A DNA stretch of 64,000 nucleotides from an uncultured Gammaproteobacteria bacterium (GTDB lineage Bacteria; Patescibacteriota; Microgenomatia; UBA8517). This document shows positions 12,952 through 40,401 of the stretch, in pieces. The translations under genes were made by a program, and so were the position numbers. The stretch lies in assembly GCA_964645605.1 (NCBI GenBank), contig CAZYCE010000001.1, positions 64,063-128,062 on the forward strand. The letters run 5' to 3'. The notes below the pieces were generated by a model. The model ran no database searches. It was given only the letters and a program-made list of their open reading frames with translations, and was not told the DNA's origin. How positions within the stretch are numbered: the first letter of the stretch is position 1; every line of letters starts with the position of its first letter.

Positions 12952-14313
12952 ATGAATAATGAACAAGTTTGGAAAGATTCTTTAGAAATTATTAAGGTCA
13001 CGGTTTCTCCGGCTATTTTTTCGACGTGGTTTTCCCAAACACACCTTGTTTCGTTAGAGGACTTTCCTGATAAATCAAGTATCGAGGTGGGTTGTCCGAC
13101 TTCGTTTGCAAAAAACACAATTGAAGCCAGGTATTTTGGGTTGGTACAGGATTCCTTGTCAAAAGTATTAGGTAAAAAATGCGATCTAACTTTCATCGTC
13201 AAATCTAATCCTAAAACAATAAAGGGTAGCCAAGTTCCGTCTTCCCCTCTTTTCTCTATCGAAAAAGACGAGAAGAGCTCGCTTGAGGTTTTACAAAAGG
13301 CGAGGATCAGGCCCAGTTTTACTTTTGAAAATTTTGCGGTTTCATCGTCTAACCAAATGGCACATGCGGCTGCAGAAGCAGTATCAAGAGATTTGGGGTC
13401 TGCATATAATCCGCTATTTATTTGGGGTGGGGTGGGGGTTGGTAAAACACATCTTATGGTTTCTGTCGGAAATTACGTATTGAAGAACAGCTCCGACAAA
13501 AAGGTGTTGTTTTGTACTGGAGAGGACTTTACCAACGATATAGTTGAGGGAATCAGAAATAAAACAACGCAGGCATTCAGAAACAAATACAGGAAACTGG
13601 ATTTACTGTTAATAGACGACATTCAATTCATTGCCGGAAAAGACACTGTCCAGGAAGAGTTTTTCCACACATTTAATGCGGTGACCTCGGTAGGGGGACA
13701 GATTATCTTGACATCGGACAGGCCTCCCTCGGAAATATCAAGACTTGAAGAGCGCCTAAGAAGCCGTTTCGAGGCGGGCTTGATTGTAGATATTGCGCCA
13801 CCGGATTTTGAGCTAAGATGTGCCATTACACAAATAAAGGCTAAGGAAAAGGGAATTGACCTAAGTTCCGAGCAAGTCCAGATGATTGCCGCAAATTCGG
13901 AGTCGGCCAGAAAAATCGAGGGGATTTTAACGAAAATTTTGACCGAAATTCATATCAAAAACATCGTAGTCACAAACGAGTTAATTGAAAGCATGTTCTC
14001 AAGAAGCTTAGAAAATATGGGCAATGTAACGAGAAGCACTCCGGATGAAGTGATCGACGCTGTTTCAAAATATTTCCAAATAGGAAAAAGGTTGCTTTTG
14101 GGAGAATCCCGTGCCAGATCAATTGCCAGACCAAGGCAGATATTAATGTATCTTCTAAGAACACATCTTGGGGAACCTCTTGAGGAAGTGGGAAGAGTAA
14201 CCGGGGGAAGAGATCATACGACTGTTATGCACGCTGTGGAAAAGATAACCCAACTAGCCACAAACGATGTGCAAATCCGTGAGGATATTTTGAAGATAAA
14301 ACAAGTCATTTGA
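12952..14313 (+). CDS. dnaA: Chromosomal replication initiator protein DnaA.
   Basis: AAA+ Walker A GGVGVGKTHLM, Walker B LLLIDDIQF, and a C-terminal DNA-binding helix-turn-helix region. Flanked by rpmH and dnaN. Confidence 0.95.
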   Translation: MNNEQVWKDSLEIIKVTVSPAIFSTWFSQTHLVSLEDFPDKSSIEVGCPTSFAKNTIEARYFGLVQDSLSKVLGKKCDLTFIVKSNPKTIKGSQVPSSPLFSIEKDEKSSLEVLQKARIRPSFTFENFAVSSSNQMAHAAAEAVSRDLGSAYNPLFIWGGVGVGKTHLMVSVGNYVLKNSSDKKVLFCTGEDFTNDIVEGIRNKTTQAFRNKYRKLDLLLIDDIQFIAGKDTVQEEFFHTFNAVTSVGGQIILTSDRPPSEISRLEERLRSRFEAGLIVDIAPPDFELRCAITQIKAKEKGIDLSSEQVQMIAANSESARKIEGILTKILTEIHIKNIVVTNELIESMFSRSLENMGNVTRSTPDEVIDAVSKYFQIGKRLLLGESRARSIARPRQILMYLLRTHLGEPLEEVGRVTGGRDHTTVMHAVEKITQLATNDVQIREDILKIKQVI

Positions 14314-14527: not shown

Positions 14528-15640
14528 ATGAAACTACAAATTCTTCAGGAAAATCTAGAAAAAGCGGTTAATATAACCACAAGGTTTGCAAGCACCAGAG
14601 CACAACTTCCGATACTTGGGAACATACTTATTTCGGCCAGAAAAAATAAAATTTACGTCTCCTCAACTAATTTGGAAATTTCTGCAAGTGTTCAGGTTGG
14701 GGCAAAAGTAGAAAGAGAAGGGGAAATAAGTATTCCGGCCAAGGTCATAACGGATTTGATTTCCAATCTACCCAAGGAAACAATAAATCTTGAGGCGGAA
14801 AAAGAACAGTTAAAAATTACAACAAGTGGTTTTTCTTCGATGGTTTTGGGAATGAATTCGAGTGATTTTCCCAAAGTTCCCAATTCATTATCCGAGAAAA
14901 ATACAATCACCTTTTTGAGAACAGAAATTTCGGAGAGTTTGAATAAGGTCATCTTTTCAACCTCGACAGATGAGACAAGACCTGTACTAACAGGTGTTTT
15001 ATTTATTTTATCGGGTAAATTCTTGTCTTTAGTATCTACGGATGGCTTTAGACTTTCCAGAAAGACAATCCTCTTAAAATACAATGTAAAAGAAAAGAAA
15101 TCGGTTGTTATTCCAAAGGGCGTACTGGCGGAAATCGGCAGGGGAGTTTTTGATGTGGATGAAATCCTTTTTGATCTCGATGAGTCGGAAAAACAAGTAA
15201 TTTTCGGGCTGGGGGACACTGTTTTGACGTCACGGCTTTTGGAAGGGGAGTATCCCGATTTTGAAAAAATTATTCCTAAAAGTTCATTTGTTAAAATTAC
15301 TTTAGATAAAGAAGAATTTTTGAGAGCTGTAAAGCTGGCATCTATTTTTGCGAGAGAATCCGCAAATATAGTAAAAATAAAGGTACTAAAAGATTTGATT
15401 AAGGTATCTGCGGAAAGCGGGGCAGCGGGAAGTCAGGAAACAAAAGTTGATGCTAAAGTTGAAAAAGAGGGTGGTGACGAATTCGAAATCGCCTTTAACT
15501 ATAGATTTTTGGAGGACTTCCTGCATTCGGTGGCAGGGGAGGAAATTCGAATGGAGTTTACCAACCCTACTTCGGCGGGTGTTTTTAGAGACACCGGTGA
15601 TCCCGAATATCTTCATTTAATCATGCCGGTTAAATTATAA
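14528..15640 (+). CDS. dnaN: DNA polymerase III beta sliding clamp.
   Basis: 370 aa, three-domain clamp length. Position immediately after dnaA/oriC. Typical N-terminal MKLQILQENL…. Confidence 0.85.
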   Translation: MKLQILQENLEKAVNITTRFASTRAQLPILGNILISARKNKIYVSSTNLEISASVQVGAKVEREGEISIPAKVITDLISNLPKETINLEAEKEQLKITTSGFSSMVLGMNSSDFPKVPNSLSEKNTITFLRTEISESLNKVIFSTSTDETRPVLTGVLFILSGKFLSLVSTDGFRLSRKTILLKYNVKEKKSVVIPKGVLAEIGRGVFDVDEILFDLDESEKQVIFGLGDTVLTSRLLEGEYPDFEKIIPKSSFVKITLDKEEFLRAVKLASIFARESANIVKIKVLKDLIKVSAESGAAGSQETKVDAKVEKEGGDEFEIAFNYRFLEDFLHSVAGEEIRMEFTNPTSAGVFRDTGDPEYLHLIMPVKL

Positions 15641-15645
15641 AAGAA

Positions 15646-16677
15646 TTAGTTTTTAAAGGCGGGCAAATACATCAGAATATTGACAGAATTGCCGATGTTA
15701 TTAACTGAAGCGGTTCCTTCACTAAGGAAAACCGGTTGAAGGTTTGCCCCACTCTGATTGTCTAAAAGATATACAACCGAAACTTTATTAATCTTTATGT
15801 TGGAGACATCACCTATTTTTAAATCCGGTAAGTTAACGTTGTTGTTATTTAAACTTACAATTATGCTTTGAGGGACCATTTGCAGGAACTCCTCATAATT
15901 CAAAATTGGATATCTTTCAGTTGACTCCTGAAAAACGTATCCGATATTACCTTTAAAGTTAAAAGGGGTACCGTCTTTTAACATCTGTACATACAACTGT
16001 GGCTCATCGGGGTTAACAGTAAATATTGGATAAACGGAAGGGCTTTGAGAATAATTTACCTGCACGATATCAGCATTTTCTTTTGTTGTTTTTAAAAGAT
16101 TCTCGATATTATCCGAAACTTTGTAATAGGTAAAATTGATAAATTTTAAATTGGTGTTATCAAGCCCAACCTTGTTTACCAGAAATTGTGACGCTATTGC
16201 CCGGTATTCGTTTTCGGTTACTTGCTTGTTAACAGTGTTTTTAATAAGTGTGCGAATACCCTTATTCGAAGAATAAAAAATATTGTTTGTTTTTAATATA
16301 ATTGTTAATGAATAATTATCATTATTCCATATCATTATTGTTCCGCTTTGTGCATCGTTCGCCACTATTGGTTTTAATGTAAAACCCATTCTCGCAGCAA
16401 TTTCGTTTGCCATAGATTCGCTAATAACACCGGGCGATATTGGTTTTAGAAAAGGCAGGTTTGGAGGAAAGCTAAAGTCTGATTTATTAATGTGACTTTC
16501 TATTGACAAACTACCTTCTTTAAAATAGTTTGTGATATTTAAAGGTTGACGAACGCCGTTTTGGTTTTCTTCCGTGTTGTTTTTTGCTTTTTTTAACGCC
16601 AAAAATATAAACAACAAAGACGCCACAGACATTATTGCTAAAATTAATATAATTAGCTTTTTATTTATTTTAAACAT
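15646..16677 (-). CDS. Secreted/membrane-anchored hypothetical protein (343 aa), first gene of the accessory island downstream of dnaN.
   Basis: N-terminal signal/anchor KLIILILAIMSVASLLFIFLAL. No known motif. Confidence 0.4.
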   Translation of the reverse strand: MFKINKKLIILILAIMSVASLLFIFLALKKAKNNTEENQNGVRQPLNITNYFKEGSLSIESHINKSDFSFPPNLPFLKPISPGVISESMANEIAARMGFTLKPIVANDAQSGTIMIWNNDNYSLTIILKTNNIFYSSNKGIRTLIKNTVNKQVTENEYRAIASQFLVNKVGLDNTNLKFINFTYYKVSDNIENLLKTTKENADIVQVNYSQSPSVYPIFTVNPDEPQLYVQMLKDGTPFNFKGNIGYVFQESTERYPILNYEEFLQMVPQSIIVSLNNNNVNLPDLKIGDVSNIKINKVSVVYLLDNQSGANLQPVFLSEGTASVNNIGNSVNILMYLPAFKN

Positions 16678-16682
16678 CTTTT

Positions 16683-19427
16683 TTACGGTATGTAACCACA
16701 GTAATTGAATTCATCTGAACAGTTTCTTTTAATATTTTTAGGTATATACGGTGGCTCCATGATTATTCCTCCTATAAATTCATAATGCAAATGAGGTCCC
16801 GTTCCTTGGGTTCCTGAAAGTCCTATTGGTTGTCCAAAGCCGATTTCTCCGTCTTTGGCGAAAACAACAGAAAGATGTGCATACCTTACGGTTACCTGTT
16901 TTCCTCCACAATCGGAAGAAACGTCAACATAATTTGGCCCGTAGGCGGCAACTCCCCTAACAACATTTGCTACGCCGGTAGAAGTTGATTGGACGTGTGT
17001 TCCTACGGGTACGGCAATATCAATAGCCTCATATCCTCGATGACTATAACCACCGTTTGGTGTCTGTGTAATCGGATAACTACCCAATATCGGCCAACCG
17101 GCAGGACACGTATCTGGGGGGTTTCCGATTTTGATTGATGTCGTTGCGGCCGTTTCCTGTTGACCACCATCGGCCGTGTTGGCGCTCACAGTGACAGTAT
17201 TTATTACAAGAGAGTCTTTATACTCACCGCCTGAATAATTTGACTCGTATGAGTAGGAGTATGGACCACTGGTTACAATTTCACCGGGAATATCTGAGGC
17301 AGACGGGGTGTTTGAAGGACATTTCTTGTTTCCCGCAGCAGAAATTATTTGACAATCATCTTTTATTGAGATGTTTGTCAAAGTGCTCTTTTTTGCATTG
17401 ACGGTAACATTATAGGAAACTTTAAGAGGGAGACTTGAATTTTGAAACGGTCCGGAAGGACTGACGTCTTTTTGTACATGTATATAAGGATTCGTGCTCG
17501 TTCCCGCGGTGGCAGTAGGTGGTACTATGTACGCTCCTGAGTTGATAATAAAAAGTATAAAAGCCACAAGAATTGGAGTAACCAATACAGTGATAAATAT
17601 AGGCATAAAGATGGGTGCGATAGCCAATTTACCCAAGGTAACAAAGAAACCTCCAATGCTTGTGCCAACAGCCCCTAAACTAACACTTCCTGCTGACACA
17701 GCAGCAGAAACTCCAAAAGCCCCAAGTCCGGCAATAATTCCCACAACAGGCCCTGCAATCAAAAAGGCTCCAAGACCTATGACGGCACCAATTATGTAGT
17801 CTGCATTCTTTTTAATCCATGGCCCCACCTTTTCCAGAATTTTTCCAAAAACTGCTCCGATAATTAATCCCGCAATTGTGCCGATAACGGGAATTATTCC
17901 AGTTCCAACCGTTGCCCCAACTTTTGCGGCCGCCGCTTGCATACCAAGTTTACTAAGTAAAGAAGACGCACCTCTAGCGATAGCGTTTCCCAGTGTGATA
18001 TTCAAACTTTTTCCTGCGACTGCTTTGGCAACGGCCCCTTCAGTTATTCCCTCCGCAACAACGGCACTCTCGGCAACAATCGCACCTTCCGTGGCAATCA
18101 TCTCGGTTGCAACCGGGGCGACAGCCTGAATGCCTACATTTATACCTAATCGCCCGGCGATATTTGTTATTAATGGGGCATAACCAGGGAAAGCTGTGGT
18201 GATAAGTTTTCCAAAAGAACTGGTACCAACATATTCAAAGTTGGTTTGTAAACCCAAAAACGGGGCTATGCTGTCAAATGCTTGAGAATTGGCAAAACCG
18301 GAGATTTTTCCAAGTGATCCAGTTGTAGTCAAAGATTTTGTTTTTGACAATGCCAACACCTTAAGCTTTGATTCGGCAATCCCCTTTACACTCTCAGTTA
18401 CCGGAGAATTAAAACCGTCGGAGATATCTCCTTCCTGGAAAGAAAAGGAATTATTCTGAAGTTGACCCAGTTTAATTGTAAAAGCTCCGTCAGATTTTTC
18501 AGTGGATAAAATATACTGCTGCTCGACCGGACCCAACACCGTGTTTGTAATATTTTCGCCGAGGGTTCTTAGGAGAACTGTTCTGTAAAGGTTGTCATTA
18601 CTTTCTGAAAACACCGTGAGCATGGATGTTGTTTTTACCAACTCTCTTTGTGCTACGGAACTTAGATCGGGTATCAGTTCAGGAGCCTTTGCGGTCGCAG
18701 CAAAAACTCCCACGGGGACAGGTTTTTGGGCCGGATTAATAAGAGCTTGGGTAGTATCTACCGCAATAATTTGGGACAAGGGTTCTAATATTTCTTTCGG
18801 AATATCCGGATTTTTCTGAGATATGAGTTGCGAAAGTTTTTGAGAAAAGAGCTGAGAATCATTCTTGGCAATATCCACTAGTTTTTGTTCGTTTTCAGAA
18901 AAAATAATATCCGGAACTTTTGTAGCGGGTACAGCATACAAGGTTTTGTCGCCAATCTCTGTCAATACATTCTTTTGGATATCTTTGGGGGCGGCTTGAA
19001 TAATTTTGGCGCGCGATTCATATATCTCCTGCTGTTTATTTATAGATTTTCTTACAGCTTCTTCAGCTTTTGTTTTTGTTTCAAGACTTTCTGTCTCACG
19101 TTTCCGTCTTTCGAGTTCCTGCAACGCGCGTGCTTCCTTGTCCGGCACGTTTGCTTCAACCGGCTTTTCCTCGTTTTCGGATTCTCCCACAAGTTTCTCT
19201 ACAGCAAGTTCTGCCTTTTTAATATTTTCAATATCTTTATCGGACTTTATGCGGATGCCGGTTAGCCTGTAAACAAAATCTATGAAATCGCTTCTGTTTT
19301 TCCAATTAAATTCTCCAGAAACATATGGCTTATCAGAAGAATATATAGCGTCTTCAGGGAAGAAATGGGCAAAGGCAAACCTTAGATAATTTACATTTTC
19401 GGAGGTCAAGCTGATCTTATTTGCCAT
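16683..19427 (-). CDS. Giant (914 aa) membrane protein. Cytoplasmic coiled-coil N-terminus, Gly/Ala-rich multi-helix membrane region, and a C-terminal extracellular M23 (LytM-type) metallopeptidase domain. Candidate cell-wall-remodelling component of the secretion/pilus apparatus.
   Basis: C-terminal GYSHRGYEAIDIAVPVGT… and GPHLHYEF (HxH) motifs are characteristic of M23 peptidases. A glycine-zipper-like hydrophobic block spans residues ~430-620. Directly adjacent to the VirB4-like ATPase. Confidence 0.6.
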   Translation of the reverse strand: MANKISLTSENVNYLRFAFAHFFPEDAIYSSDKPYVSGEFNWKNRSDFIDFVYRLTGIRIKSDKDIENIKKAELAVEKLVGESENEEKPVEANVPDKEARALQELERRKRETESLETKTKAEEAVRKSINKQQEIYESRAKIIQAAPKDIQKNVLTEIGDKTLYAVPATKVPDIIFSENEQKLVDIAKNDSQLFSQKLSQLISQKNPDIPKEILEPLSQIIAVDTTQALINPAQKPVPVGVFAATAKAPELIPDLSSVAQRELVKTTSMLTVFSESNDNLYRTVLLRTLGENITNTVLGPVEQQYILSTEKSDGAFTIKLGQLQNNSFSFQEGDISDGFNSPVTESVKGIAESKLKVLALSKTKSLTTTGSLGKISGFANSQAFDSIAPFLGLQTNFEYVGTSSFGKLITTAFPGYAPLITNIAGRLGINVGIQAVAPVATEMIATEGAIVAESAVVAEGITEGAVAKAVAGKSLNITLGNAIARGASSLLSKLGMQAAAAKVGATVGTGIIPVIGTIAGLIIGAVFGKILEKVGPWIKKNADYIIGAVIGLGAFLIAGPVVGIIAGLGAFGVSAAVSAGSVSLGAVGTSIGGFFVTLGKLAIAPIFMPIFITVLVTPILVAFILFIINSGAYIVPPTATAGTSTNPYIHVQKDVSPSGPFQNSSLPLKVSYNVTVNAKKSTLTNISIKDDCQIISAAGNKKCPSNTPSASDIPGEIVTSGPYSYSYESNYSGGEYKDSLVINTVTVSANTADGGQQETAATTSIKIGNPPDTCPAGWPILGSYPITQTPNGGYSHRGYEAIDIAVPVGTHVQSTSTGVANVVRGVAAYGPNYVDVSSDCGGKQVTVRYAHLSVVFAKDGEIGFGQPIGLSGTQGTGPHLHYEFIGGIIMEPPYIPKNIKRNCSDEFNYCGYIP

Positions 19428-19429
19428 CT

Positions 19430-21295
19430 TTATTTATCTCTATATGGACTGGTATTGATTTTTACTACATCTTGTGGTTTGGTAGTAATTAATTTGTTTT
19501 CGCTTTCTGAGGCAACAACCCTGATTGGGGCATGGTGGGGGCCTGCAAAAAAGATTCCCTCTCCCACATTGGCTGCCAAAAGAAGGCGCTTTTCGCCCTG
19601 GGACAAATAAAACACTTCTCCTATTTTGTCGATTGCTGCCGGAGATTGTTTAAAAAGTACCTGCATGGAGCTATTTGTAACGATCGCCTTACCTATATCC
19701 TGTCCCAAAAAGTCCTCGACGTCCTGAGTGATAGTGGTAAGGCCAAGATAATATTTTCGGGCTCTTTTTACAACACTCCACAAAAACTGGGCAGTATCGG
19801 GATATTTCATCATTTGCCAGGCCTCATCAACAAGCAAGACCCTCTTTTTTAAATCCTTTTTGATTCTGTTCCAAATGTAGTCAAGGATGACAAACATGGC
19901 AATCGGCCGAAGGACGTCTTGAAGGTCTTTGACGGAGAATACCGTGAAGGGGTTTACAATATTTATATTAGTTTGTTGGTCGAAAATTCCGACAAAGCTT
20001 CCTTTAACGAATTTTTCTATACGTGCGGCCAAATCAAGAGCATCGGCAACCTCCATGCCAATCAGGGTTTTATAAAGATCTTCCATTAAAGGGGGTTCTT
20101 TTCCCTGAGTATCGGGATCCATTGTTATTCCTTTTGCCCGGTAGGTCATAATTAGAGCTCTATCAAGAAGTGCCTCCTGGGTTGGAGTAATGGCTCCCAT
20201 GATCACTTTCATTAACGAGTGCAGAGACAAGATCTTAAGACCCAATTGGTTTTCCCCCTCCTCTCTTATTTGGGACAGATCAAATGGGTTAATTTTCGCG
20301 CTGGAATTAAACGAAAAAGCTATATACTCTCCGCCCACAGCTTCAGCTATGCTTTTATATTCACTTTCGGGATCGATAACTATAGTCTCTATCCCAACCA
20401 TAAGAGATCTTAATGCCTCTAATTTTACAAAATATGATTTTCCTGCTCCGGATGTTGCAAAAATTGTCATGTTGGCATTGGGAAGGGTGAATCTATCGAA
20501 AATAATAAAAGATTCGTTTTGGGAATTCATGCCGTACAAAACCCCCCTATCGCTTGAAAGCTCTGTTGAAGTTAGGGGAAATGTGGTGGCAACGGACGTA
20601 GTATCCATGTTCCTGGTTATATTAAGCCTATCTATTCCAAAAGGAGCGGTTGCCAAAAACCCTTCAGCCATATCAAGCGTTGCGTGTTTGCTGAGAACCA
20701 TTAAGGAACCAAGCTGAGATTCAACTTGTTTAGTTACTTGGTTAAGTTCTTCTACGGAGTTGGCGGGAATAGTTATGTAAAAAGCGAATTCATAAAATCT
20801 CTCAATTCCTTTTACAAGTTGTTCTTGAAGGGCCTGTGCATCTTCGAGTTTTGCTTGAGTAACAGGGTCCACTATCTTTCCGCGTTCGATGTCGGTATTC
20901 ATTTCCGCTTCCATTTCAGCAATTTTGCGCCTGAGATCGTCAAGTACGGTTTTACCGTCAACTGGATAAATGTAAAAAGATATATCAAGAGATGTGTCAA
21001 TATTAACAACCGGTTCAAGCCAGCCCGGGGTAACAAACCTTGGGTATCCTCCCACAAAAATTGTCCTGAAATAGACGTCGTTAACTTTTATATAATCAAA
21101 ATCAACCTCGACTGATTGTGGCGAGATGACATCAAGCAAATTATTTTTCTGGGCAATTACAGAATATGCGGGCGAGAGAACAGGAGGCTTTATCTCCGGT
21201 TTGGGGACGGCTGTTTGAGGGCTATTGGTTCTTGTTTGAGTTTCTTGTTTTTTGTCCATATTTTTAAACTTTGGGTGCAACTTCTCTATCTTCAA
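19430..21295 (-). CDS. virB4: VirB4/TraE/TrbE-family conjugative type IV secretion ATPase (Gram-positive PrgJ/TcpF-like).
   Basis: Walker A FATSGAGKSYFVK and Walker B VLLVDEAWQMM. N-terminal FRT…GYP…WL region typical of VirB4/TraE. Length 621 aa. Confidence 0.85.
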   Translation of the reverse strand: MKIEKLHPKFKNMDKKQETQTRTNSPQTAVPKPEIKPPVLSPAYSVIAQKNNLLDVISPQSVEVDFDYIKVNDVYFRTIFVGGYPRFVTPGWLEPVVNIDTSLDISFYIYPVDGKTVLDDLRRKIAEMEAEMNTDIERGKIVDPVTQAKLEDAQALQEQLVKGIERFYEFAFYITIPANSVEELNQVTKQVESQLGSLMVLSKHATLDMAEGFLATAPFGIDRLNITRNMDTTSVATTFPLTSTELSSDRGVLYGMNSQNESFIIFDRFTLPNANMTIFATSGAGKSYFVKLEALRSLMVGIETIVIDPESEYKSIAEAVGGEYIAFSFNSSAKINPFDLSQIREEGENQLGLKILSLHSLMKVIMGAITPTQEALLDRALIMTYRAKGITMDPDTQGKEPPLMEDLYKTLIGMEVADALDLAARIEKFVKGSFVGIFDQQTNINIVNPFTVFSVKDLQDVLRPIAMFVILDYIWNRIKKDLKKRVLLVDEAWQMMKYPDTAQFLWSVVKRARKYYLGLTTITQDVEDFLGQDIGKAIVTNSSMQVLFKQSPAAIDKIGEVFYLSQGEKRLLLAANVGEGIFFAGPHHAPIRVVASESENKLITTKPQDVVKINTSPYRDK

Positions 21296-21980
21296 TTACC
21301 TCTGGTTCCTTTTTGACTGTAGGTTTCTCGGGATTATAAATTGAGTAAAAAAGATTAATAAGCTCGGGGGTTGTAAGTTGTTTAAATTTAATTCCAAGCC
21401 GGCCGGCCTGGCGAATTAGATGATCGCGTCTTGGATAAAGAACAATTTTGGCTTTTTTAATGACATACGATTCCGAAAAAGGAAGGGTTTCTCCCCGTTT
21501 TGTCAAAGCCGCAACAGATTTAGCCACCCCCAGTTCAAGGGGGGAAAGATAAAGAACTACGAAAAACCTTTTGCCCAAAACATTTTTCTTCTTAACGGAT
21601 TCAGAAATGAAGTTTTGATAATCTTGCATAAGTTTGGAAAGAAGGGGTTGCGTAATCTTTTGAGACTGGTCTTTTAGAAAATTTAAATACGACGAGATAT
21701 CCTTCTTCTGAGTTAGAACGACAATCTGTATTGAAAAACTGAGGGAATTTATCATTGCGGCATAGGCTGCGATGACCGCTTCTTGTTCCTTTTCGGATAA
21801 AAGACCGAAGTTAAGGGATGTTGATTCCATAACAAGTGCGGCTCCACCATCTTTGTAAAGAGCCATATCATTTGTGATGTCCGCCACAGGTACAAAATTT
21901 TGTGTAGTTGAATTAAGAGGAGCATCGGGTAATGTTAAAAAAGGAACCCTTAACTTTAATTTTGGTATTATTTTTGCCAT
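21264..21980 (-). CDS. Hypothetical cytoplasmic protein (238 aa) within the T4SS-like island.
   Basis: ORF only. Its 3' end overlaps the virB4 start, suggesting translational coupling. Confidence 0.35.
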   Translation of the reverse strand: MAKIIPKLKLRVPFLTLPDAPLNSTTQNFVPVADITNDMALYKDGGAALVMESTSLNFGLLSEKEQEAVIAAYAAMINSLSFSIQIVVLTQKKDISSYLNFLKDQSQKITQPLLSKLMQDYQNFISESVKKKNVLGKRFFVVLYLSPLELGVAKSVAALTKRGETLPFSESYVIKKAKIVLYPRRDHLIRQAGRLGIKFKQLTTPELINLFYSIYNPEKPTVKKEPEVIEDREVAPKV

Positions 21981-23048
21981 TTAATTATAAATTGTCTGAC
22001 CATTTACGTTTACAGGAACTTGCTGTGTTGTTGATTGTATAAGCCTTCGACCCTCGACAAGTATGGGAGGAACAATTTCTCCCTTGGCCTCAAAATTTAC
22101 AGGCATGAACTGATAACCCTCCTTATCGCTGATGATGCTGTATTTTCCATTATCAAGTGGGGTAACGGCAATAAAATGCCCTAGCTTATTACTTCTGAGG
22201 GCTCTTATCGGACGGCCATATTCATCTCTAATTTCAATGATTGCTCCTTCGACAATTCTTCTTGCCTCATCAACTACTTGGCCAACAATTACGTTTGGAT
22301 TTGTGGGGGGGTTTGGGGGGGCAGCGTCAATCGAGAAAATGGCTTCCTTGGTGGAAACAATTTCTTCGCCGACAATAGTCGGATTAACATTCTGCGTTTT
22401 AATTTGTACTGTCTGGGAAACCGGTTGGGGTTTTTCTTCAACCACCAGGTGTGTCGGTTGTTGTGGCTGGCTGATTTTAACAGGCATGGTAGTTGGAATT
22501 TCCAGCTTTTTGGGTTGGGGAGGGGTGGTTGGGGCAGTTGCCACCTGAGGGGCTGCCGGCGTTGCCGCAATCCTTATCCCTGTAAGCATGTCGGATAGTT
22601 TTGTCAAGAAACCCTGTTCAGCTCCCTCCAGCTTTGCAAGAGGCCCTGGAGGGGCTTTAGTGGCGTTAAGGTAACTTTTGAGAGCCGCTTCCTGACTCTG
22701 TGTCTGTGTGTTTGGTATATTGGTGGTTGGTGTATCATCTGCAAAAAATTTGGGAACTTCTGTAGTTTTTTTCCATCGGAAAATGGTGGGGGAATATATT
22801 GCTCCGAAAAATGCCAAGATCCATTGTTCGAGAGGACGTTCTTGAAGTGGAACAAAAGCCATGGCAGCTCCCAAAATTACAGATACGATTACAAATGGCC
22901 ATTTTATTATTCCGATAAGGGGGGAGGAGTAAAAAACAAGTCCCACCAATACCCCTCCGGCAAGTTCAAAAAATTGCTTCAGGGTCATGTCTCCCACAAG
23001 TTTGAACTGGTATGAACTAACGTTTTGCGGTATCGGATGTTGTTCCAT
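21981..23048 (-). CDS. Membrane protein (355 aa) with two N-terminal TM helices, a Pro/Thr-rich linker and a C-terminal extracytoplasmic domain. Possible VirB3/VirB8-like scaffold of the island.
   Basis: Hydrophobic helices at residues ~30-50 and ~52-72. PTTPPQP-type linker. Functional call is inference from position only. Confidence 0.35.
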   Translation of the reverse strand: MEQHPIPQNVSSYQFKLVGDMTLKQFFELAGGVLVGLVFYSSPLIGIIKWPFVIVSVILGAAMAFVPLQERPLEQWILAFFGAIYSPTIFRWKKTTEVPKFFADDTPTTNIPNTQTQSQEAALKSYLNATKAPPGPLAKLEGAEQGFLTKLSDMLTGIRIAATPAAPQVATAPTTPPQPKKLEIPTTMPVKISQPQQPTHLVVEEKPQPVSQTVQIKTQNVNPTIVGEEIVSTKEAIFSIDAAPPNPPTNPNVIVGQVVDEARRIVEGAIIEIRDEYGRPIRALRSNKLGHFIAVTPLDNGKYSIISDKEGYQFMPVNFEAKGEIVPPILVEGRRLIQSTTQQVPVNVNGQTIYN

Positions 23049-23192
23049 AAAGACAGTAAAAGCAGAAAGCTCTACTCTAGGTTAAGATTAGCGCGTGAAG
23101 TATTCTGTGCAAGAAGTATCGTTTTTCACAGTTTTAATTTTCTTTTATCTCTTGCCTTTCATCTTTTATCTGTGATGTTATATAATTTGCAT

Positions 23193-25817
23193 ATGCCCGA
23201 CAGTATGTCATCAGAGAATAGACCAATTACACCAGATTTTCATATAGGAGCTCCGGCAAAACTTCCGGCGAATGAGACTTCGATGCAGGCTGCACAAAAC
23301 GAGTTTAAACCTGAGTGGAAATCTAGCATGTCTGATATAAGGATGCAGCTTGGAAATGGAGGAAAGGATGATGGGGAAGGGCTTAATATTATGGATTTGA
23401 TTAGGGCAATGTCTGGTAGGGCGGCTACTTCTGGTTTGGAAAAGTTTAGTAATGGTTTGCAGGGCATAGCTGAGACAAAAGAGAGGATGGGTGATATAGA
23501 GAATGGATTGGGGAGCAATAAATATATCGGGGACGAAAAAGATAAAAAAGAAGAGGAGCAATTGATGCTCAAGGAAAAACTAGAAAACTTGCATAATTCG
23601 CTTAAGAAAAAATACAGCACCATGCAAGAACAGTCCATTTCTGTAGTAAACGATTTATTTGTTGTCTCTGTTGACCAAAAAAAGAATGCCTATCCTTATG
23701 ACCACAGAACAGCTGAACTGACAATCAAAACAATATTGGAGACGGCACAAACCCTACAAGAAGAAGAATGGGCTGACGATCCGGAACTTTCTCTTTGGTT
23801 GAAGAGAATGGAAAGAGATGCTACATGGATGGCGGGACTTTTGCAGGTTTCTGTTGGGCAATCCGCCTCAGCACCATATTTTTTTGATGTCGTGATGCAG
23901 ATGCAAGTATTAAAGGAAAGATATAAAGCTTTTATAACTTCGGAAGATTTAAAAAATATGCACGCAAAAGAACTTCCTGGTTTGGAATTCAGTAGTGACG
24001 AAAAAGCCAAAATGGATGAAAAGGGCATTGGTCTAAAAGTTGATGATGAATATAGAACTTTAGTAGAAAATACCCCTCCGGAAAAAAGATTATTGTTCAA
24101 TAAAGAGGAAAGTGTTGGTCTAAGAGAATTGGGGGTTAAAATGATTGATTCTAGCTTTGCTATGAGAATGCGAATTGCTGCTGTCTCGCAGTCCGATTTG
24201 GCAGCACCAAACGGAGACAAAAATACTTTTATGGGTGATTATTTAAAACCTGAAGAGATTGCTTTTTTTAGAGACCTTTTATTAAGAAGAAACCCAAAGG
24301 GAGAATATTACATATTGTCTCCCCACATGGCCTCAATGGATAAAGACAAAAGAGACGCGACAGCTTATCTAGAGGCCTTACTTTTGACCAACGCGGAAGA
24401 AAGACTAAATAGCATCATTGCTAATGACTCGGTGAACAAGGAGAACTTGATTTCTGAATTAGTCGAAGATGTTAAAGAGAAAGCTACCTATAGAATTACG
24501 AACTGGAAATCAAGAGACAATGGAGATATTGTTTCTCAACTGGCCTCTTTAGTAACAAAACAGGGTTTATATGAAGATTACGCATTTTTAAACGCCTATA
24601 AATATTGTTGGGAATATACTTGGGCGATCGGCTCGGACGGCAAGTTTAAGAAAGTTGGGGTTGAGACAGCAGGCATTTATTCATATTCAGGAGATATTTA
24701 CAGTTTGTATTACATGAGAAGGGCAGCTCAGTACGATAGAAGTTCGAATTCTAGGACTCAGCTTCTTCTTCCGACGAGCAAAGCAGGCAGAAAAGAACTG
24801 GACCTAATGCCCTATGACAAAATGCCTGAATATAAACCAGGCATGCCTGGTGACCAAGATCGTTTTTTGGCCGACCAGTGGGATTTTGTTTTTGGTACTG
24901 ACCCTAAATCTAAAAAGGCTAGAGAAACCATGGGATACGTCGATATTCCGCAGCAGGTTGCTGATAAGCTTAAAAGTTGGGCCGTGTCTTGGAAAACTCC
25001 ATACAATAGTAAATATGTGGAGAATGACACTAGTTACGAATTGGTTGTTCCACATTTAATGCCACCAGGGCTAGATATAGCCTGCTTTTTAGATGCGATA
25101 CCTAGCAGTGAAACAAAATTAAACGCAGGGGGAAAGAGTGTTTGGCAGAGCATGGTTGAAGGAAAAAGGTTCTCAGAAGTAAATTGGGATATACAGGAAA
25201 ATTTACCAGTAGACAGGTGGTATGTTGATTTGGATATGGCCTCAAGGTATATGAATGTTCTGATCGGAGTTTTTGACAAAGAGAAGGATCCAATAATGGG
25301 TCTTATCAACGAAGGTCCGTCTACTCTTGCACCCAAAGAGTTTGCTAAAAGGTTAAGGCTGTCCTTCCGCGATAGCCCGAAGGGGTACCCAGAGGAATAT
25401 GAAGTTGCTTTTATCCCATTTATAGTTACACTTTCTAGTATTCAAAAATATGACCTCACCTCTGCTAGCGCGTGGCATGATGTTGATAAAAGCAATATGA
25501 CCTCCGTAGAACACTTTCTTTTGGAAATTTCTAAGTGGCAGAGAGCATTCAAATGGTTACCTTCTGATAGACCAAATCCCGCACTACTCTCACGTGATTC
25601 TGAAGGTAACGTCTTGGAATGGGATTACGGAAACACAATGGCTCTTTTGATGGAATTTTATACAGGGGTGCTTCTTCGTGTAGCTAAAAGCTCTGCCGAA
25701 GAGTCTGCCCGTATGGCATCTAAGAATTATCAAAACACCATTAGTCGTCTGAACGAAATGCCCTTCATTGGAAACGGTCTTTTGGATAGAAAGCCAAGCA
25801 AGAATTTGATACCGTAA
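23193..25817 (+). CDS. Large (~874 aa) soluble hypothetical protein, the only plus-strand gene inside the island. Possible secreted substrate/effector or regulator. The ORF-track start at 23025 is probably an upstream extension.
   Basis: Long uninterrupted ORF with normal composition. TATAAT at 23181-23186 sits 6 nt before the in-frame ATG at 23193, suggesting a leaderless transcript. No TM segments. Confidence 0.45.
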   Translation: MPDSMSSENRPITPDFHIGAPAKLPANETSMQAAQNEFKPEWKSSMSDIRMQLGNGGKDDGEGLNIMDLIRAMSGRAATSGLEKFSNGLQGIAETKERMGDIENGLGSNKYIGDEKDKKEEEQLMLKEKLENLHNSLKKKYSTMQEQSISVVNDLFVVSVDQKKNAYPYDHRTAELTIKTILETAQTLQEEEWADDPELSLWLKRMERDATWMAGLLQVSVGQSASAPYFFDVVMQMQVLKERYKAFITSEDLKNMHAKELPGLEFSSDEKAKMDEKGIGLKVDDEYRTLVENTPPEKRLLFNKEESVGLRELGVKMIDSSFAMRMRIAAVSQSDLAAPNGDKNTFMGDYLKPEEIAFFRDLLLRRNPKGEYYILSPHMASMDKDKRDATAYLEALLLTNAEERLNSIIANDSVNKENLISELVEDVKEKATYRITNWKSRDNGDIVSQLASLVTKQGLYEDYAFLNAYKYCWEYTWAIGSDGKFKKVGVETAGIYSYSGDIYSLYYMRRAAQYDRSSNSRTQLLLPTSKAGRKELDLMPYDKMPEYKPGMPGDQDRFLADQWDFVFGTDPKSKKARETMGYVDIPQQVADKLKSWAVSWKTPYNSKYVENDTSYELVVPHLMPPGLDIACFLDAIPSSETKLNAGGKSVWQSMVEGKRFSEVNWDIQENLPVDRWYVDLDMASRYMNVLIGVFDKEKDPIMGLINEGPSTLAPKEFAKRLRLSFRDSPKGYPEEYEVAFIPFIVTLSSIQKYDLTSASAWHDVDKSNMTSVEHFLLEISKWQRAFKWLPSDRPNPALLSRDSEGNVLEWDYGNTMALLMEFYTGVLLRVAKSSAEESARMASKNYQNTISRLNEMPFIGNGLLDRKPSKNLIP

Positions 25818-26068: not shown

Positions 26069-27685
26069 TTATTTGGGATTAGTCCTATTGGGATTAGCCC
26101 TATTATTTACATAATCTTTAAACCATTGCGGAGCCTTTGAGGATTTGCCACTGATCGCTTCCGGATTTATCCTTTTATTTAAGTTTCTATAGAAATTCTG
26201 AGCGCCAACTTCTCCTCCATATTTTCTAATTGCCGCGATCTGAGGACCCATTGTTTGCCCATAGACCCCCTTAATGGTTCCTGTGGCTTCACCAATTGCA
26301 CTTCCATAGTCAAACGGTTTGCCGGAGAAGAATGATTGGACAATCTCGGCAGCTTTTGTGATCTGACTGAATATGAAAAAACTTACAAACACCCATATCA
26401 ATTGACCCCCATTATGCTCCGCATTGGTACCTACCCCAAATGGGGGATTCCATGTGTCGGAGCCAATCATGTTAACAACCGGCCTGAAAGGAGTGGAATA
26501 GGCTTCCCTTTCGGCTTCGATGGTCATACCTTGTTTCAGGAAGAAAAAAGAAAAGAAAATCATCACAACCATGACCGGGTATATAGCCAGGTAGGACGCA
26601 ATTCGTTTTAGCCAGCTTCCAAAACCGATTTTGGAAGACACCGCACCCATCATTATTTCAAGAGGTCCTGTTGCAATGGAAATCATAAGCATGGCGAAGT
26701 TTTTGATCATCACAAATATGATTTTTAGTGACCACCAGAGTATTGGAAAGATAGAAAAAACTGAAACAAGCAGAAGCAAAATACCAGCCCACCACATGTT
26801 TCCGCTGTTGACAATTGCAAGAAACGAATTCATTACAAAGTGAACCCAGTAAGTGTACATAAGACCAAACCCGTCAAATGTATAAAGAAACTCATCAAAT
26901 AATTTTGAAGGGGCAAGAGCGCTCAGTCCGCCGGTACTGATAATGGTTGAGATAAGTCCAATAACCAAGTACATCAAATCAATTAAAAATCCGGCGATAG
27001 CATAAGAAAAGGTGATCAGAACCATAGACACGATCAATTTCGGAAGGGCAGACTGGACAGTAATTACAGTTTGAGGGTTAATTTTTACTCTAAACATAAT
27101 CATAAAAGCGATGACAATGACGGCAACCACAAGGAGACTGAAACTCAAATTTCTAAATACTCTCCAAAGGCCAACCATGGATTGTCCTACGTTAAAACCA
27201 ATTCCATTATCGGCCGCTTTGACGCTTGAGACGGGTGAAAGTTTTTGGAATAAATTATTAAAGTATCCGACACCGGAAAGCGGGCTTTTAGAAACAGTTT
27301 CTAAATAGCTTGAAGCTAAACTTTGGTTGTCGTTTGCCGTGGCTTGGGAATTAACAATTTCATCAAATTTACCCAAACAATTGTCAAAATTTATACTGCC
27401 TCCGACCATACACAAAAATAAGTCCGGATTTCCCGGGAGAAGATTGAGAAGTGTTGACGGCAAACTATAAAGAATCCATTGAACTTGGGCTGCGGTATAG
27501 CGCTCTCCAAAAATTTCACTTGATGGAGAAACGGATTCGTCATAGACTTTTCCATACCAGTCAAGAAAATTCTGGTTGTACCATGTGTTTTGTTCGGCTT
27601 TAGCTTGGAAAAGGGTAGCGGATGAAAAAAGGAGAACAATACCGATAAATGTTGAAAAAACTATTTTTTTGAGCAGGGTAGACAT
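26069..27685 (-). CDS. Polytopic membrane protein (538 aa). N-terminal signal peptide and large extracytoplasmic loop followed by ≥6 TM helices. VirB6/TrbL-like channel candidate.
   Basis: Signal-like N-terminus (IVFSTFIGIVLLFSSATLFQAKA). Multiple long hydrophobic helices in the C-terminal two thirds. VirB6 assignment is by architecture and context only. Confidence 0.45.
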   Translation of the reverse strand: MSTLLKKIVFSTFIGIVLLFSSATLFQAKAEQNTWYNQNFLDWYGKVYDESVSPSSEIFGERYTAAQVQWILYSLPSTLLNLLPGNPDLFLCMVGGSINFDNCLGKFDEIVNSQATANDNQSLASSYLETVSKSPLSGVGYFNNLFQKLSPVSSVKAADNGIGFNVGQSMVGLWRVFRNLSFSLLVVAVIVIAFMIMFRVKINPQTVITVQSALPKLIVSMVLITFSYAIAGFLIDLMYLVIGLISTIISTGGLSALAPSKLFDEFLYTFDGFGLMYTYWVHFVMNSFLAIVNSGNMWWAGILLLLVSVFSIFPILWWSLKIIFVMIKNFAMLMISIATGPLEIMMGAVSSKIGFGSWLKRIASYLAIYPVMVVMIFFSFFFLKQGMTIEAEREAYSTPFRPVVNMIGSDTWNPPFGVGTNAEHNGGQLIWVFVSFFIFSQITKAAEIVQSFFSGKPFDYGSAIGEATGTIKGVYGQTMGPQIAAIRKYGGEVGAQNFYRNLNKRINPEAISGKSSKAPQWFKDYVNNRANPNRTNPK

Positions 27686-27725: not shown

Positions 27726-28334
27726 CTAAAGTAAACCATAGGTTCTTATCCAAAGGTCAGCTGTTTCTTGAATGAAAGTTCTTTGACCAAAGATAAAATA
27801 AATATTATGTATATCCACCCCTTTTGTGGCAAGCAATTTTTTAATCTGTTCAAACGAATCAATAAAAGCGACAACATTTGGATTGGTTTCTTTCGATGGA
27901 TCCTGGTTCCTAAAATTAATTCCATAAATTTCTACATGGACAAGATACTCCGGGTCGCTTGGAATGGTATAGACATTTAAGGTGGTTAACATTCCGTTAG
28001 AGTTTTTAAAACTTTCAATGTAAATTGGCAGGCTGCCTTTTAACTTATTTTTGCTTTCAATGGCGGTAATTACTTTGTCGGATGTCATATCAACCTGCCC
28101 CGCGATATTTTCGGGAGGTTTTGAGTATGAAGGTTCTACAAAATTACCGGAAACAGGAGTTGCGGAAATTGATATTGAATTTTGTTCAGCTTGACCGGCG
28201 GGCTGTGCTGAAGATTGGAGGGCTTCCCCGCTCTGATTTTTGGTGGATAATTGAATAAAGACGAGTATCAAAATTGCCACAATGGATAGAATTATGTAAA
28301 TTTTGTATTTTGAAATAAAATTTCTCATTCTCAA
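27726..28334 (-). CDS. Membrane-anchored hypothetical protein (202 aa).
   Basis: Single N-terminal TM (IYIILSIVAILILVFIQL) followed by an extracytoplasmic domain. Confidence 0.35.
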   Translation of the reverse strand: MRMRNFISKYKIYIILSIVAILILVFIQLSTKNQSGEALQSSAQPAGQAEQNSISISATPVSGNFVEPSYSKPPENIAGQVDMTSDKVITAIESKNKLKGSLPIYIESFKNSNGMLTTLNVYTIPSDPEYLVHVEIYGINFRNQDPSKETNPNVVAFIDSFEQIKKLLATKGVDIHNIYFIFGQRTFIQETADLWIRTYGLL

Positions 28335-31623: not shown

Positions 31624-31983
31624 TTAAATAATTAGCTTACCGATGTCAATACTCAGAATGGAAACGTGGAAAATGTCTTGTATAAGTCCGATTATTGCAA
31701 AAACAGCAAAGAGAATAACAAGACCCACCAACGCGCTGGTAATCCTACTCCTTGCTTTTCCGACTGCCTCTTTATCTCCTCCTGAGGAAATCCACTGAAT
31801 TGCCCCCACCACTAAGTTGAAAAAGAAAACAATCGCACCGACTATCAAAATCAAGGTAACTGCCATCGGAAGAAATTTCTGAAGGAAGCCAATAGAGTTG
31901 GGGTCTTGTCCCAAGGTTGACGGAAGCACGGGGTTTACAATTGAACCCTGAGCCAAATTTTGAGCGATTAAATTATTTAACAT
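31624..31983 (-). CDS. Pilin-like two-TM small protein (TrbC/VirB2-like), paralog 6.
   Basis: 119 aa. ISSGGDKEAVGKARSRITSALVGLVILF motif. Confidence 0.55.
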   Translation of the reverse strand: MLNNLIAQNLAQGSIVNPVLPSTLGQDPNSIGFLQKFLPMAVTLILIVGAIVFFFNLVVGAIQWISSGGDKEAVGKARSRITSALVGLVILFAVFAIIGLIQDIFHVSILSIDIGKLII

Positions 31984-32357
31984 TATTGGCTGTTCGTGAT
32001 TACCCCGAAAAGTGCACCGATATTAAGAATATTTGGAATCCCGATAATTTTGCCTATTAAGTTGATTATAACCAGGGCCAAAATTACAACAATCAAACCG
32101 ATGGCCCCCGTTGTGATTTTTTTCCTGGCGCTTTCCAAGGCTTGCTTATCTCCTCCGGAACCAATGATACTTATCGCCCCGGTTATAAAAGTGAACACAA
32201 ACCAAATAATTGCAACAATTGTCATAACTCCGATTGCCATAGAAATTATTGAAGAAAGTTTTGAGACACCTTGCCCTTCTTCCGTTATGTTGCCAAGCGG
32301 ACCAAGACCTTTAAAGCCTCCCTCGGGTGCAATTGAAATGTCGGTTAGTAATCTCAT
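31983..32357 (-). CDS. Pilin-like two-TM small protein (TrbC/VirB2-like), paralog 5.
   Basis: 124 aa. IGSGGDKQALESARKKITTGAIGLIVVIL motif. The overlapping plus-strand ORF 31996-32376 is judged spurious. Confidence 0.55.
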   Translation of the reverse strand: MRLLTDISIAPEGGFKGLGPLGNITEEGQGVSKLSSIISMAIGVMTIVAIIWFVFTFITGAISIIGSGGDKQALESARKKITTGAIGLIVVILALVIINLIGKIIGIPNILNIGALFGVITNSQ

Positions 32358-32370
32358 GCTTTCAATTTCA

Positions 32371-32883
32371 TTATAAAGTCGGAATCGTCGGGTTGAGTAT
32401 AAAGTCCCACCTTCCGAATATCAACTGTCCGAAAATAGCTGCTAGAACAAATGCCGCCGCTGCAACCACAAGCCCGAGAGCCGTTTGCCAAATTTTGGCC
32501 CACGCACCGGCAACCTTTTTAGGGTCGTCTCCGGCAGAAAGAAAGGCATACCCGGCAAGAATAAAATTGAAAAGGGCATAGATGCCCGCCCCAATAATTA
32601 AAACCCAGATTATTCTTTGAATTAAATTCCCTATCCCAGTTCCCGGGTCTCCCGAAACTGCCACAGGGGGATTAATAGTTCCGAAAGGGTTATTGTTGGG
32701 CGCCGCATTCGAACCCGGTTTACAACAGTGTGCCACACAACGTTCCCCCATGCCGCACTCGGTATCAAGGGTGCATTCAGGAGGATCACACGCAGCAATT
32801 ACACTATTGACATGTAATATCAAACCGATAAAAACCCCTAAGGAAATGTAGAATATTTTCCTAATTTGCATTTTTTTAGACAA
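32371..32883 (-). CDS. Pilin-like module fused to an N-terminal secreted Cys-rich domain (170 aa), paralog 4.
   Basis: Signal peptide, then CDPPECTLDTECGMGERCVAHCCKPG, then C-terminal LSAGDDPKKVAGAWAKIWQTALGLVVAAAAFVL two-helix pilin module. Confidence 0.5.
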   Translation of the reverse strand: MSKKMQIRKIFYISLGVFIGLILHVNSVIAACDPPECTLDTECGMGERCVAHCCKPGSNAAPNNNPFGTINPPVAVSGDPGTGIGNLIQRIIWVLIIGAGIYALFNFILAGYAFLSAGDDPKKVAGAWAKIWQTALGLVVAAAAFVLAAIFGQLIFGRWDFILNPTIPTL

Positions 32884-33196: not shown

Positions 33197-33242
33197 AACA
33201 CCATTTTAGTATAGAGTTTTACTTAAGACAAGTGAGTGGATT

Positions 33243-33575: not shown

Positions 33576-33577
33576 TT

Positions 33578-39305: not shown

Positions 39306-39308
39306 GTC

Positions 39309-40395: not shown

Positions 40396-40401
40396 ACCGT
40401 G

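Follow-up and report, generated by a model that had tools for sequence, protein, structure and literature searches.

Exchange of the C-terminal module together with the following gene in a type IV secretion-linked anchor-hydrolase protein of Microgenomatia

Introduction

Patescibacteria widely carry a type IV secretion system (T4SS) close to their replication origin, and the only species examined so far cannot grow as an epibiont without it (PMC10633639, PMC12102498). As described by Quinonero-Coronel et al., these systems derive from the MPF-FATA group, lie beside dnaA, lack a relaxase and, especially in the class Microgenomatia, come with arrays of pilin genes (PMC12102498); a coupling protein is likewise missing (PMC10633639, PMC12102498). 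In this study we looked at one such locus in a stretch of 64,000 nucleotides (nt) from an uncultured bacterium of the Microgenomatia (GenBank assembly GCA_964645605.1, contig CAZYCE010000001.1, positions 64,063 to 128,062; the whole stretch is hereafter called the window), and in particular at the protein of 914 amino acids (aa) that is encoded directly after the VirB4-type ATPase and ends in an M23 peptidase domain.

The hydrolase PrgK of the Enterococcus faecalis plasmid pCF10 has a K/E-rich intracellular N-terminal part of ~240 aa and a transmembrane (TM) helix at residues 245–278, and outside the membrane it carries a LytM, a muramidase and a CHAP domain. PrgK binds the downstream protein PrgL, and of its domains only the muramidase has been shown to be active (PMC11323569). 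In the saccharibacterium ‘Ca. Southlakia epibionticum’ virB4 is followed by SEML1_0007, which codes for a ‘hypothetical protein’ of 1113 aa that was essential by transposon sequencing (Tn-seq) and whose sole recognised domain is a C-terminal Hedgehog/DD-peptidase (residues 951–1105), and it is followed by genes for a lysozyme/CHAP protein (SEML1_0006) and an exported PEGA/immunoglobulin-like (Ig-like) protein (PMC10633639). This type of locus, with its split VirB4 and its array of pilin genes, is already known, as are a Patescibacteria peptidase gene after virB4 and membrane-anchored T4SS hydrolases that contain LytM. In the literature we searched there was no description of the Microgenomatia family itself, of its multi-helix anchor and the INSGAY junction reported below, or of the repeated exchange of a module together with its partner gene.

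Results and Discussion

A conserved single gene directly after virB4

Positions given below are those of the window, and virB4 and the 914-aa open reading frame (ORF) both lie on its minus strand. The ATPase gene (19430–21295, 621 aa from a TTG start) ends with a TAA stop codon at 19432–19430, followed by the two letters AG and then by the ATG of the 914-aa ORF (16683–19427) at 19427, leaving a 2-nt gap. A sequence-only reading of this stretch had placed the 914-aa ORF ahead of the VirB4 start, and that order is reversed, as the ORF sits downstream of virB4. What it said about a VirB4-type ATPase tightly adjoining a large membrane protein agrees with our results, the ATPase matching NF045971 (CD1110-family) at 1.1e-108 with 364.5 bits against a cutoff of 325. 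The 2-nt gap suggests that the two genes are translationally coupled, and a spacing of 1–3 nt between virB4 and the anchor-hydrolase gene recurs in orthologous loci. VirB4 lies directly upstream of the anchor-hydrolase gene in 40/40 species-level loci (with a TrsD match in 35 of these) and dnaN comes next, on the opposite strand, in 36 of the 40. Related loci were found in metagenome-assembled genomes of Woesebacteria, Microgenomates and Amesbacteria, and the gene order recurs in the orthologous loci L001–L004. Across the 40 loci VirB4 is 63–92% identical, as opposed to 25–53% for the scaffold of the anchor-hydrolase protein.

The 914-aa ORF is 100% identical to a protein (P0001) on a 199.7-kb NCBI contig. 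When 1.84 billion cluster representatives were searched with a profile of the family, 1167 matched (487 with E<1e-30), most of them full-length at 800–1000 aa. A fusion artefact of two genes was one of the caveats attached to the sequence-only reading; a membrane protein and a secreted M23 peptidase would then have been joined in assembly or annotation by a sequencing error or a missed stop codon. We regard it as ruled out and give it practically no probability, as the ORF is uninterrupted, the identical protein is present in NCBI, independent assemblies contain more than 100 full-length relatives of 800–1000 aa, the junction motif does not vary and the gene is a single ORF at 36 independent loci. 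The 914-aa ORF is one real gene, and it is conserved in hundreds of lineages.

The C-terminal module is exchanged together with the next gene

The sequence-only reading missed that the M23 domain is one of six interchangeable modules, each with its own downstream gene. When the last ~175 residues of 155 family members were sorted, six unrelated C-terminal classes were obtained: a HExxH zincin-like class (51 members), M23 of the window type (47), a divergent M23 (31), CHAP type a (11), CHAP type b (8) and Amidase_2 (7). The HExxH class gave only sub-threshold zincin matches (Reprolysin_5, Peptidase_Mx1 and M64). The exchange point lies exactly after the invariant INSGAY motif, which in the window protein covers residues 628–633 (17529–17546) at the end of the last membrane-block helix and contains the invariant columns N629, G631, A632 and Y633. 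Relatedness of the scaffold is no guide to the module class: in just 38 of 139 cases do a protein and its nearest scaffold neighbour have the same class, which suggests that exchange is frequent.

Exchange can be followed between near-identical relatives. The proteins P0007 (divergent M23) and P0013 (Amidase_2) share 96.9% identity over 606 residues and are unrelated directly past INSGAY. The DNA of their loci (L047 and L007, respectively) is 97.6% identical up to the INSGAY codons, counting from upstream of TrsD where L007 begins on its left side, cannot be aligned over the C-terminal module and the entire downstream gene, and is 93.8% identical again from the end of dnaN. A blastn comparison of the window with L001, a locus of the HExxH class, gave 77.5% identity over 23222–17517, 75.7% over 15634–12043 and nothing between, placing the variable cassette of C-terminal module and downstream gene at 15635–17516 on the minus strand.

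The downstream gene in the window (15646–16677, minus strand) codes for 343 aa and starts 5 nt past the stop of the 914-aa ORF. In 36 loci we sorted the ORF after the hydrolase gene (gap −19 to +30 nt) into seven families, D1–D7, of which the window gene belongs to D2. HExxH modules are followed by D1 (8/8 loci), divergent M23 modules by D3 (7/7), CHAP type a by D4 (3/3), CHAP type b by D6 (3/3) and Amidase_2 by D5 (3/3), while M23 modules are followed by D2 at 8 loci, D1 at 2 and D7 at 2. Module class and downstream family are concordant in 34/36 loci, a level reached by 0/20000 permutations, and D2 is found exclusively beside M23-type modules (8/8 D2 loci). Because the swap occurs within near-identical flanks, phylogenetic linkage alone is insufficient to account for this association. 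The pattern is that of a cognate, effector/immunity-like pair in which the 343-aa ORF is the partner of the M23 module, and the replacement of the catalytic end and the next gene between near-identical genomes suggests that enzyme and partner interact specifically and that this interaction is under diversifying pressure.

A basic N-terminus, one N-terminal transmembrane segment and a body that is predicted to be extracytoplasmic are common to all partner families; in the 343-aa protein the membrane anchor spans residues 3–31. Cysteine is absent from all but one of the listed members. The partner domains are heterogeneous (Big_5, PEGA/beta-propeller-like or no assigned family), and none of the families matched TcpC/VirB8 or a known immunity family. 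For the 343-aa protein itself six homologues were found, Pfam returned a transmembrane-region match only, and a PDB profile search and PADLOC returned nothing.

Two loci, L023 and L026, are the only exceptions to the rule of one class and one partner. Their M23-type modules come without the beta-sandwich spacer that is described in the next section (tails of 179–187 aa), and their long partners (389 aa and 334 aa, respectively) cluster with D1. The 389-aa partner in L023 has a PEGA domain, and these partners may themselves be modular.

Domain layout and predicted topology

The start of the protein, MANKISLT..., is conserved in homologues. Residues 1–95 (19143–19427; this and all following parts of the protein are on the minus strand) are modelled by AlphaFold2 as an alpha/beta domain with a predicted local distance difference test (pLDDT) score of ~70–85, and are the most conserved part of the protein, with the consensus MANKISLTxENIxYLRxAFxHFFPEDTIYxADKPYxSGEFNWKNRxDFIDFVYRLTG. 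Neither a profile search of PDB sequences nor Foldseek against the PDB found relatives of this domain. It is followed by a long K/E/R-rich helix (residues 97–142, 19002–19139, AlphaFold2 pLDDT ~70–79) and by a mostly helical domain in the AlphaFold2 model (residues 148–370, 18318–18986) for which Pfam, PDB sequences and PDB structures (Foldseek) gave no match. A cytoplasmic coiled-coil N-terminus had been proposed for this protein from its letters; the long helix is present and is a candidate coiled coil, and the cytoplasmic side is presumed because no signal peptide is found. Residues 430–503 (17919–18140) form a low-complexity linker rich in Ala, Gly and Val that also contains Glu and Lys, is not membrane-like and is modelled as disordered (pLDDT ~25).

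The hydrophobic membrane block covers residues 504–633 (17529–17918), is rich in Gly, Ala, Val and Ile, and has 3–5 helices according to Kyte-Doolittle hydropathy, AlphaFold2 and the family profile. It is made up of a weakly hydrophobic helix (~510–528), a conserved basic loop (529–543, GKIxEKIPWxKVKK), a helical hairpin (~544–558 and 560–579) and a long last helix (~590–633), with AlphaFold2 placing helices at 513–540, 542–558, 560–579 and 585–629. A Gly/Ala-rich membrane block of about 190 residues had been expected here; the hydrophobic block is there, but it measures ~130 aa rather than 190, and residues 430–503 carry charges. Small-xxx-small motifs number 18 against 15.6 ± 2.6 in composition-preserving shuffles, and the GxxxG/A zippers that had been read into the block do not rise above compositional expectation.

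Past the block, residues 645–775 (17103–17495) form a beta-sandwich spacer (Ig-like, DUF7507-like) that holds Cys692, Cys703 and Cys774. The spacer is common to the M23, divergent-M23 and HExxH classes, and Pfam recognises DUF7507 in 2 members. The catalytic domain follows at residues 790–890.

The N-terminal part of ~500 aa is free of Cys and has neither a signal peptide nor any hydrophobic segment before residue 503. Within the family the number of Cys per 100 aa is 0.04 before INSGAY versus 2.7 after it, the Cys count after INSGAY is even in 109/129 proteins, and a stretch corresponding to residues 544–652 is free of charges throughout by the charge/hydropathy profile. On account of the missing signal peptide, the positive-inside rule and the Cys distribution, the most economical topology would have the N-terminus inside, three true membrane passes and the C-terminus outside, with five passes as a possible alternative. 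In two relatives, a protein of 2012 aa in L017 (383–6421) and one of 1270 aa in L036 (1637–5449), the N-terminal part that precedes the conserved membrane block and the M23 module is greatly expanded.

The M23 domain

Residues 790–890 (16758–17060) are an M23 metallopeptidase domain of the LytM/lysostaphin type. The Pfam PF01551 match covers residues 800–884 with 39.3 bits against a cutoff of 28.7, rising to 42.9 bits for the isolated tail, and solved M23 enzymes including ShyA (4e-10) and zoocin A were also matched. Of the motifs named in the sequence-only reading (HxxxD followed by HxH), the HxH motif (H879-L-H881) and, with it, H851 in the YxHL strand (RYAHL) are canonical and kept in nearly all of the 47 M23-class members, and the literal HxxxD is absent. 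The first motif is instead Hx6D (H796-RGYEAI-D803), or Hx7D in some relatives, and the residue four before D803 is a Tyr. H796 is conserved in 46/47 members and falls, across an insertion of 3–4 residues, in the same column as the zinc-ligand His of lysostaphin. Variable spacing between this His and Asp occurs in subfamily M23A. A loss of catalytic residues on proper alignment had been named as a reason to doubt the domain; in the alignment of the 47 members H851, H879 and H881 are in place, H796 and D803 probably take the part of the first motif, and all five are conserved in about 45 of them. The M23 domain is probably active, unlike the LytM domain of PrgK, which is degenerate and metal-free (PMC11323569).

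Comparison with known systems

The architecture had been called unusual, which does not stand when the protein is set beside PrgK and SEML1_0007, as both have the same position and layout. The order PrgH (VirB6)-PrgI-PrgJ (VirB4)-PrgK-PrgL in pCF10 is collinear with the window. PrgK is likewise encoded right after virB4 (prgJ) and is of similar size (~870–910 aa for the two proteins, PrgK having 871), it combines a charged intracellular N-terminus with a membrane segment and extracellular wall-hydrolase domains including one of the M23/LytM type, and the next gene again codes for a bitopic membrane protein, PrgL, which binds PrgK. PrgK differs in having one TM helix rather than a 130-aa multi-helix block behind ~500 predicted cytoplasmic residues, and three domains with a muramidase rather than a single M23 with no glycosidase; no lysozyme or SLT domain was found in 31 family members. 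Cassette exchange has not been described for PrgK, and the hhalign probability of homology between the two proteins is 0.1%. As regards the VirB1-like DELTA class, the window protein shares the T4SS operon, the membrane anchor and a predicted N-in/C-out topology, and departs from it in sequence homology to PrgK and in the glycosidase domain.

SEML1_0007 is similar to the window protein in belonging to a Patescibacteria T4SS beside the replication origin, in its very large size and in its C-terminal metallopeptidase of a peptidoglycan type. It differs in catalytic fold, which is M15-like rather than M23, and Southlakia has a separate lysozyme/CHAP protein (SEML1_0006) where the window has none. 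In position and architecture the window protein can be considered the counterpart of the PrgK and SEML1_0007 hydrolases.

Tn916 offers a third comparison. There Orf16 (VirB4) is followed by Orf15, a membrane protein of 725 aa, then by the hydrolase Orf14 and the bitopic Orf13, and anchoring and wall opening are also combined. In Tn916 these functions are split over two separate genes, the window protein does not show the weak TrbL/VirB6 signal of Orf15, and the Orf14 hydrolase is of the lysozyme/NlpC-P60 kind (glycosidase plus C40 peptidase), a chemistry different from that of M23.

The Tn916 order could suggest that the membrane block is a diverged Microgenomatia VirB6, comparable to Orf15, fused to an Orf14-type hydrolase. 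The size of the protein would suit this, since ‘extended VirB6’ proteins of monoderm systems typically have 700–900 aa (PMC12857230), and VirB6 has been reported as scarce in Microgenomatia (PMC12102498). We nevertheless think such a fusion quite improbable. Even at E<=5, none of 21 members has a TrbL/VirB6 match in Pfam. With hhalign, a coiled-coil stretch is all that aligns with Orf15 (probability 9%), PrgH gives 0.2%, and the best Foldseek match of the scaffold model in the PDB has E=0.68, a weak negative given that residues 432–645 are of low confidence in the model. With Pfam, hhalign and Foldseek all negative, and the structural negative being the weak one, a VirB6 identity of the scaffold was rejected.

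The locus moreover has a separate polytopic protein that structurally matches TrwI/VirB6. This protein of 538 aa (26069–27685, minus strand) has hydrophobic segments at residues 1–28 and 173–389 and was modelled by AlphaFold2 with a mean pLDDT of 76.8. Its top seven Foldseek matches in the PDB are all TrwI/VirB6 of R388 (probabilities 0.72–1.00, E-values 0.02–0.5), it has no Pfam or NCBIfam match, and its conserved family has more than 1400 detected members. On the strength of the structural model it is probably the divergent VirB6 of the Microgenomatia T4SS, which would probably explain the VirB6 scarcity reported for Microgenomatia in hidden Markov model (HMM) surveys.

Possible roles of the protein and its partner

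The reading we favour, with a probability of about 0.55, is that the 914-aa protein is a T4SS-tethered wall hydrolase of the Microgenomatia, functionally of the VirB1/PrgK-like DELTA class, that forms a cognate pair with the downstream protein. Translation would follow directly on that of VirB4 across the 2-nt gap, the Cys-free N-terminal half would stay in the cytoplasm, and its conserved first ~95 residues would probably dock on the VirB4/TrsD/PrgI base. The Gly/Ala-rich bundle of 3–5 helices would fix the protein in the membrane, with the last helix ending in INSGAY at the outer face, and the beta-sandwich spacer, presumably stabilised by disulfides, would hold the M23 endopeptidase in the wall zone. 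There the enzyme may cut peptide cross-links of peptidoglycan locally, presumably in the producer's own wall, to make a passage for the channel and the VirB2-like pilus. The catalytic end would be a replaceable cassette that recombination exchanges in the interval from the INSGAY-coding block to dnaN, and in each case together with the next gene, whose membrane-anchored extracytoplasmic product (343 aa in the window) may bind its cognate enzyme and control or position it. The reading is supported by the place of the gene in the T4SS cluster, the precedents of PrgK and SEML1_0007, the M23 match with its conserved residues, the predicted topology and the behaviour of the cassette. Several points weigh against it. 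hhalign detected no sequence or profile similarity to PrgK, Tn916 Orf15 or PrgH; there is no glycosidase domain, while in PrgK activity has been shown for the muramidase alone (PMC11323569); and Pfam does not group the partner families with VirB8/NTF2-like proteins. As a peptidoglycan hydrolase the HExxH class is not recognisable, it is ambiguous whether the membrane is passed 3 or 5 times, with pLDDT values of 25–60 for the membrane block, and the need for a rapid exchange of catalytic type between near-identical relatives is not obvious if only the own wall has to be opened.

It is also possible, though we hold this more tentatively, that the pair is a polymorphic effector-immunity system, in which the T4SS presents an exchangeable enzyme that attacks the wall of a host or competitor at contact and the anchored partner serves as the immunity protein of the producer and its kin. 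In polymorphic toxins such as CdiA-CT/CdiI, Rhs and LXG, C-terminal modules that are unrelated to one another follow a conserved N-terminal part behind an invariant junction motif, and each is exchanged along with its downstream gene. The family follows this layout, with a conserved N-terminal region and unrelated C-terminal modules behind a sharp junction at a conserved motif, INSGAY being comparable to VENN in CdiA, and with a downstream gene that co-varies with the module almost one to one and is exchanged along with it. The replacement of the cassette including the next gene inside otherwise 97.6%-identical DNA, the high frequency of exchange (same class in the nearest scaffold neighbour in 38/139) and the predicted location of the downstream proteins in the compartment of enzyme action would all suit an enzyme with its immunity protein. 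The biology is suggestive as well, as Patescibacteria are epibionts whose relaxase-less T4SS is needed for epibiotic growth (PMC10633639, PMC12102498), and in bacteria-killing X-T4SSs peptidoglycan-hydrolase effectors are delivered and are neutralised by cognate extracytoplasmic immunity proteins (PMC6536674). On the other hand, the multi-helix anchor has no recognisable cleavage site, which argues for retention in the producer membrane, and spacer and enzyme together (~270 aa) would hardly reach past the producer's own wall. The protein also differs from polymorphic toxins in being polytopic and encoded in the core machine operon, and its modules, except for HExxH, are wall hydrolases rather than nucleases or other toxins that act in the cytoplasm. 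The partners could not be matched to any known immunity family, and VirB1-like hydrolases of ordinary conjugation systems vary in their domains too, yet are no toxins. The essential exported PEGA protein SEML1_0005 near the S. epibionticum hydrolases is equally compatible with a structural role. The two leading readings differ mainly in the target of the enzyme and the role of the partner.

Other features of the locus and the window

The VirB4 ORF covers only the C-terminal two thirds of the VirB4 models; besides NF045971 it matches P-loop_TraG, AAA_10 and DUF87 in Pfam, and the Walker A (SGAGKS) and Walker B (LLVDEAW) motifs can be read in its translation. The N-terminal domain is encoded separately by the TrsD/TraC-like ORF at 21264–21980 (minus strand, 238 aa, NCBIfam TrsD 3.2e-07), which in two VirB4 models, Mbov_0397 and CD1110, likewise matches the N-terminal region and whose orthologues carry PF26593 (TraC-like). 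The listed TTG start of the ATPase at 21295 overlaps this ORF. Because the orthologues are 608–609 aa long, the start is probably the ATG at 21259 (609 aa) instead.

Next to the TrsD/TraC-like ORF lies a gene for a PrgI/VirB3-like membrane protein with a C-terminal extension (21981–23048, minus strand; Pfam PrgI 29 bits, cutoff 27). The T4SS genes of the minus strand run in the order three pilin genes, 861-aa Cys-rich, 202-aa bitopic, 538-aa polytopic, PrgI, TrsD, VirB4, 914-aa and 343-aa proteins, with an ORF of 930 aa on the opposite strand between the 538-aa gene and PrgI. VirB4, TrsD, PrgI and VirB2-like pilins are thus all present near dnaA (12952–14313) and dnaN (14528–15640), and a Pfam scan of 44 window ORFs recognised neither a relaxase nor a coupling protein. 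The locus is the T4SS without relaxase that Patescibacteria of the class Microgenomatia carry on the chromosome close to dnaA and that has already been described (PMC12102498). The known genes around it are leuS, L25, rnpA, yidC, jag, dnaA, dnaN, smpB with the transfer-messenger RNA (tmRNA), dnaG and rpoD; the smpB gene and the full-length tmRNA (38871–39675, plus strand; tmRNA at 39309–39675, 143.6 bits) serve as markers of the chromosomal context. An origin from a mobile element (an integrative and conjugative element or a plasmid) was rejected, as the flanks are core housekeeping genes and synteny is kept across species.

The three VirB2-like pilin genes (31983–34423, minus strand) match PF18895, with weak matches to Mbov_0395 pilin-like proteins, and two of the three proteins, of 281 aa and 170 aa, are extended at the N-terminus by Cys-rich stretches and contain 18 and 6 Cys, respectively. 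The 861-aa protein (28335–30920, minus strand) has 29 Cys, an N-terminal hydrophobic segment and no known family. It is followed by the gene for the 202-aa bitopic protein (27726–28334, minus strand), which resembles PrgL in size and topology and could possibly be a VirB8-like component. The 930-aa ORF (23025–25817, plus strand) has no family match; a gene of 889 aa or 916 aa occupies the same place and orientation in L001 and L003, and SEML1_0011 of S. epibionticum, a 998-aa ‘T4SS protein’, is equivalent in position but lies on the same strand as its neighbours. Elsewhere in the window we observed a group I catalytic intron (51232–51530, plus strand; full-length Rfam match, 66.3 bits) around which ARAGORN found no tRNA, and a LAGLIDADG homing-endonuclease-like ORF (40561–41562, minus strand) that lies immediately upstream of, and slightly overlaps, two tandem tRNA-Ser genes (40401–40575) and appears to be free-standing.

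Conclusions

The gene after virB4 in Microgenomatia can be assigned to a large, previously unnamed family of what are probably machine-tethered wall hydrolases, and the ‘missing’ VirB6 of this class would be identified as a separate 538-aa protein. There is some chance, which we put well below even, that the T4SS of the candidate phyla radiation carries a built-in polymorphic wall-degrading effector and an immunity-like partner, the enzyme being matched to the wall chemistry of a host or rival and the partner protecting the producer. If true, this would be the first effector-immunity pair tied to a Patescibacteria T4SS and would give a direct handle on the function of the machine. Should the partner be an inhibitor, the T4SS of these bacteria would be linked to wall attack or to tightly controlled autolysis; should it be an adaptor, the pair would define how a hydrolase is positioned in a monoderm T4SS.

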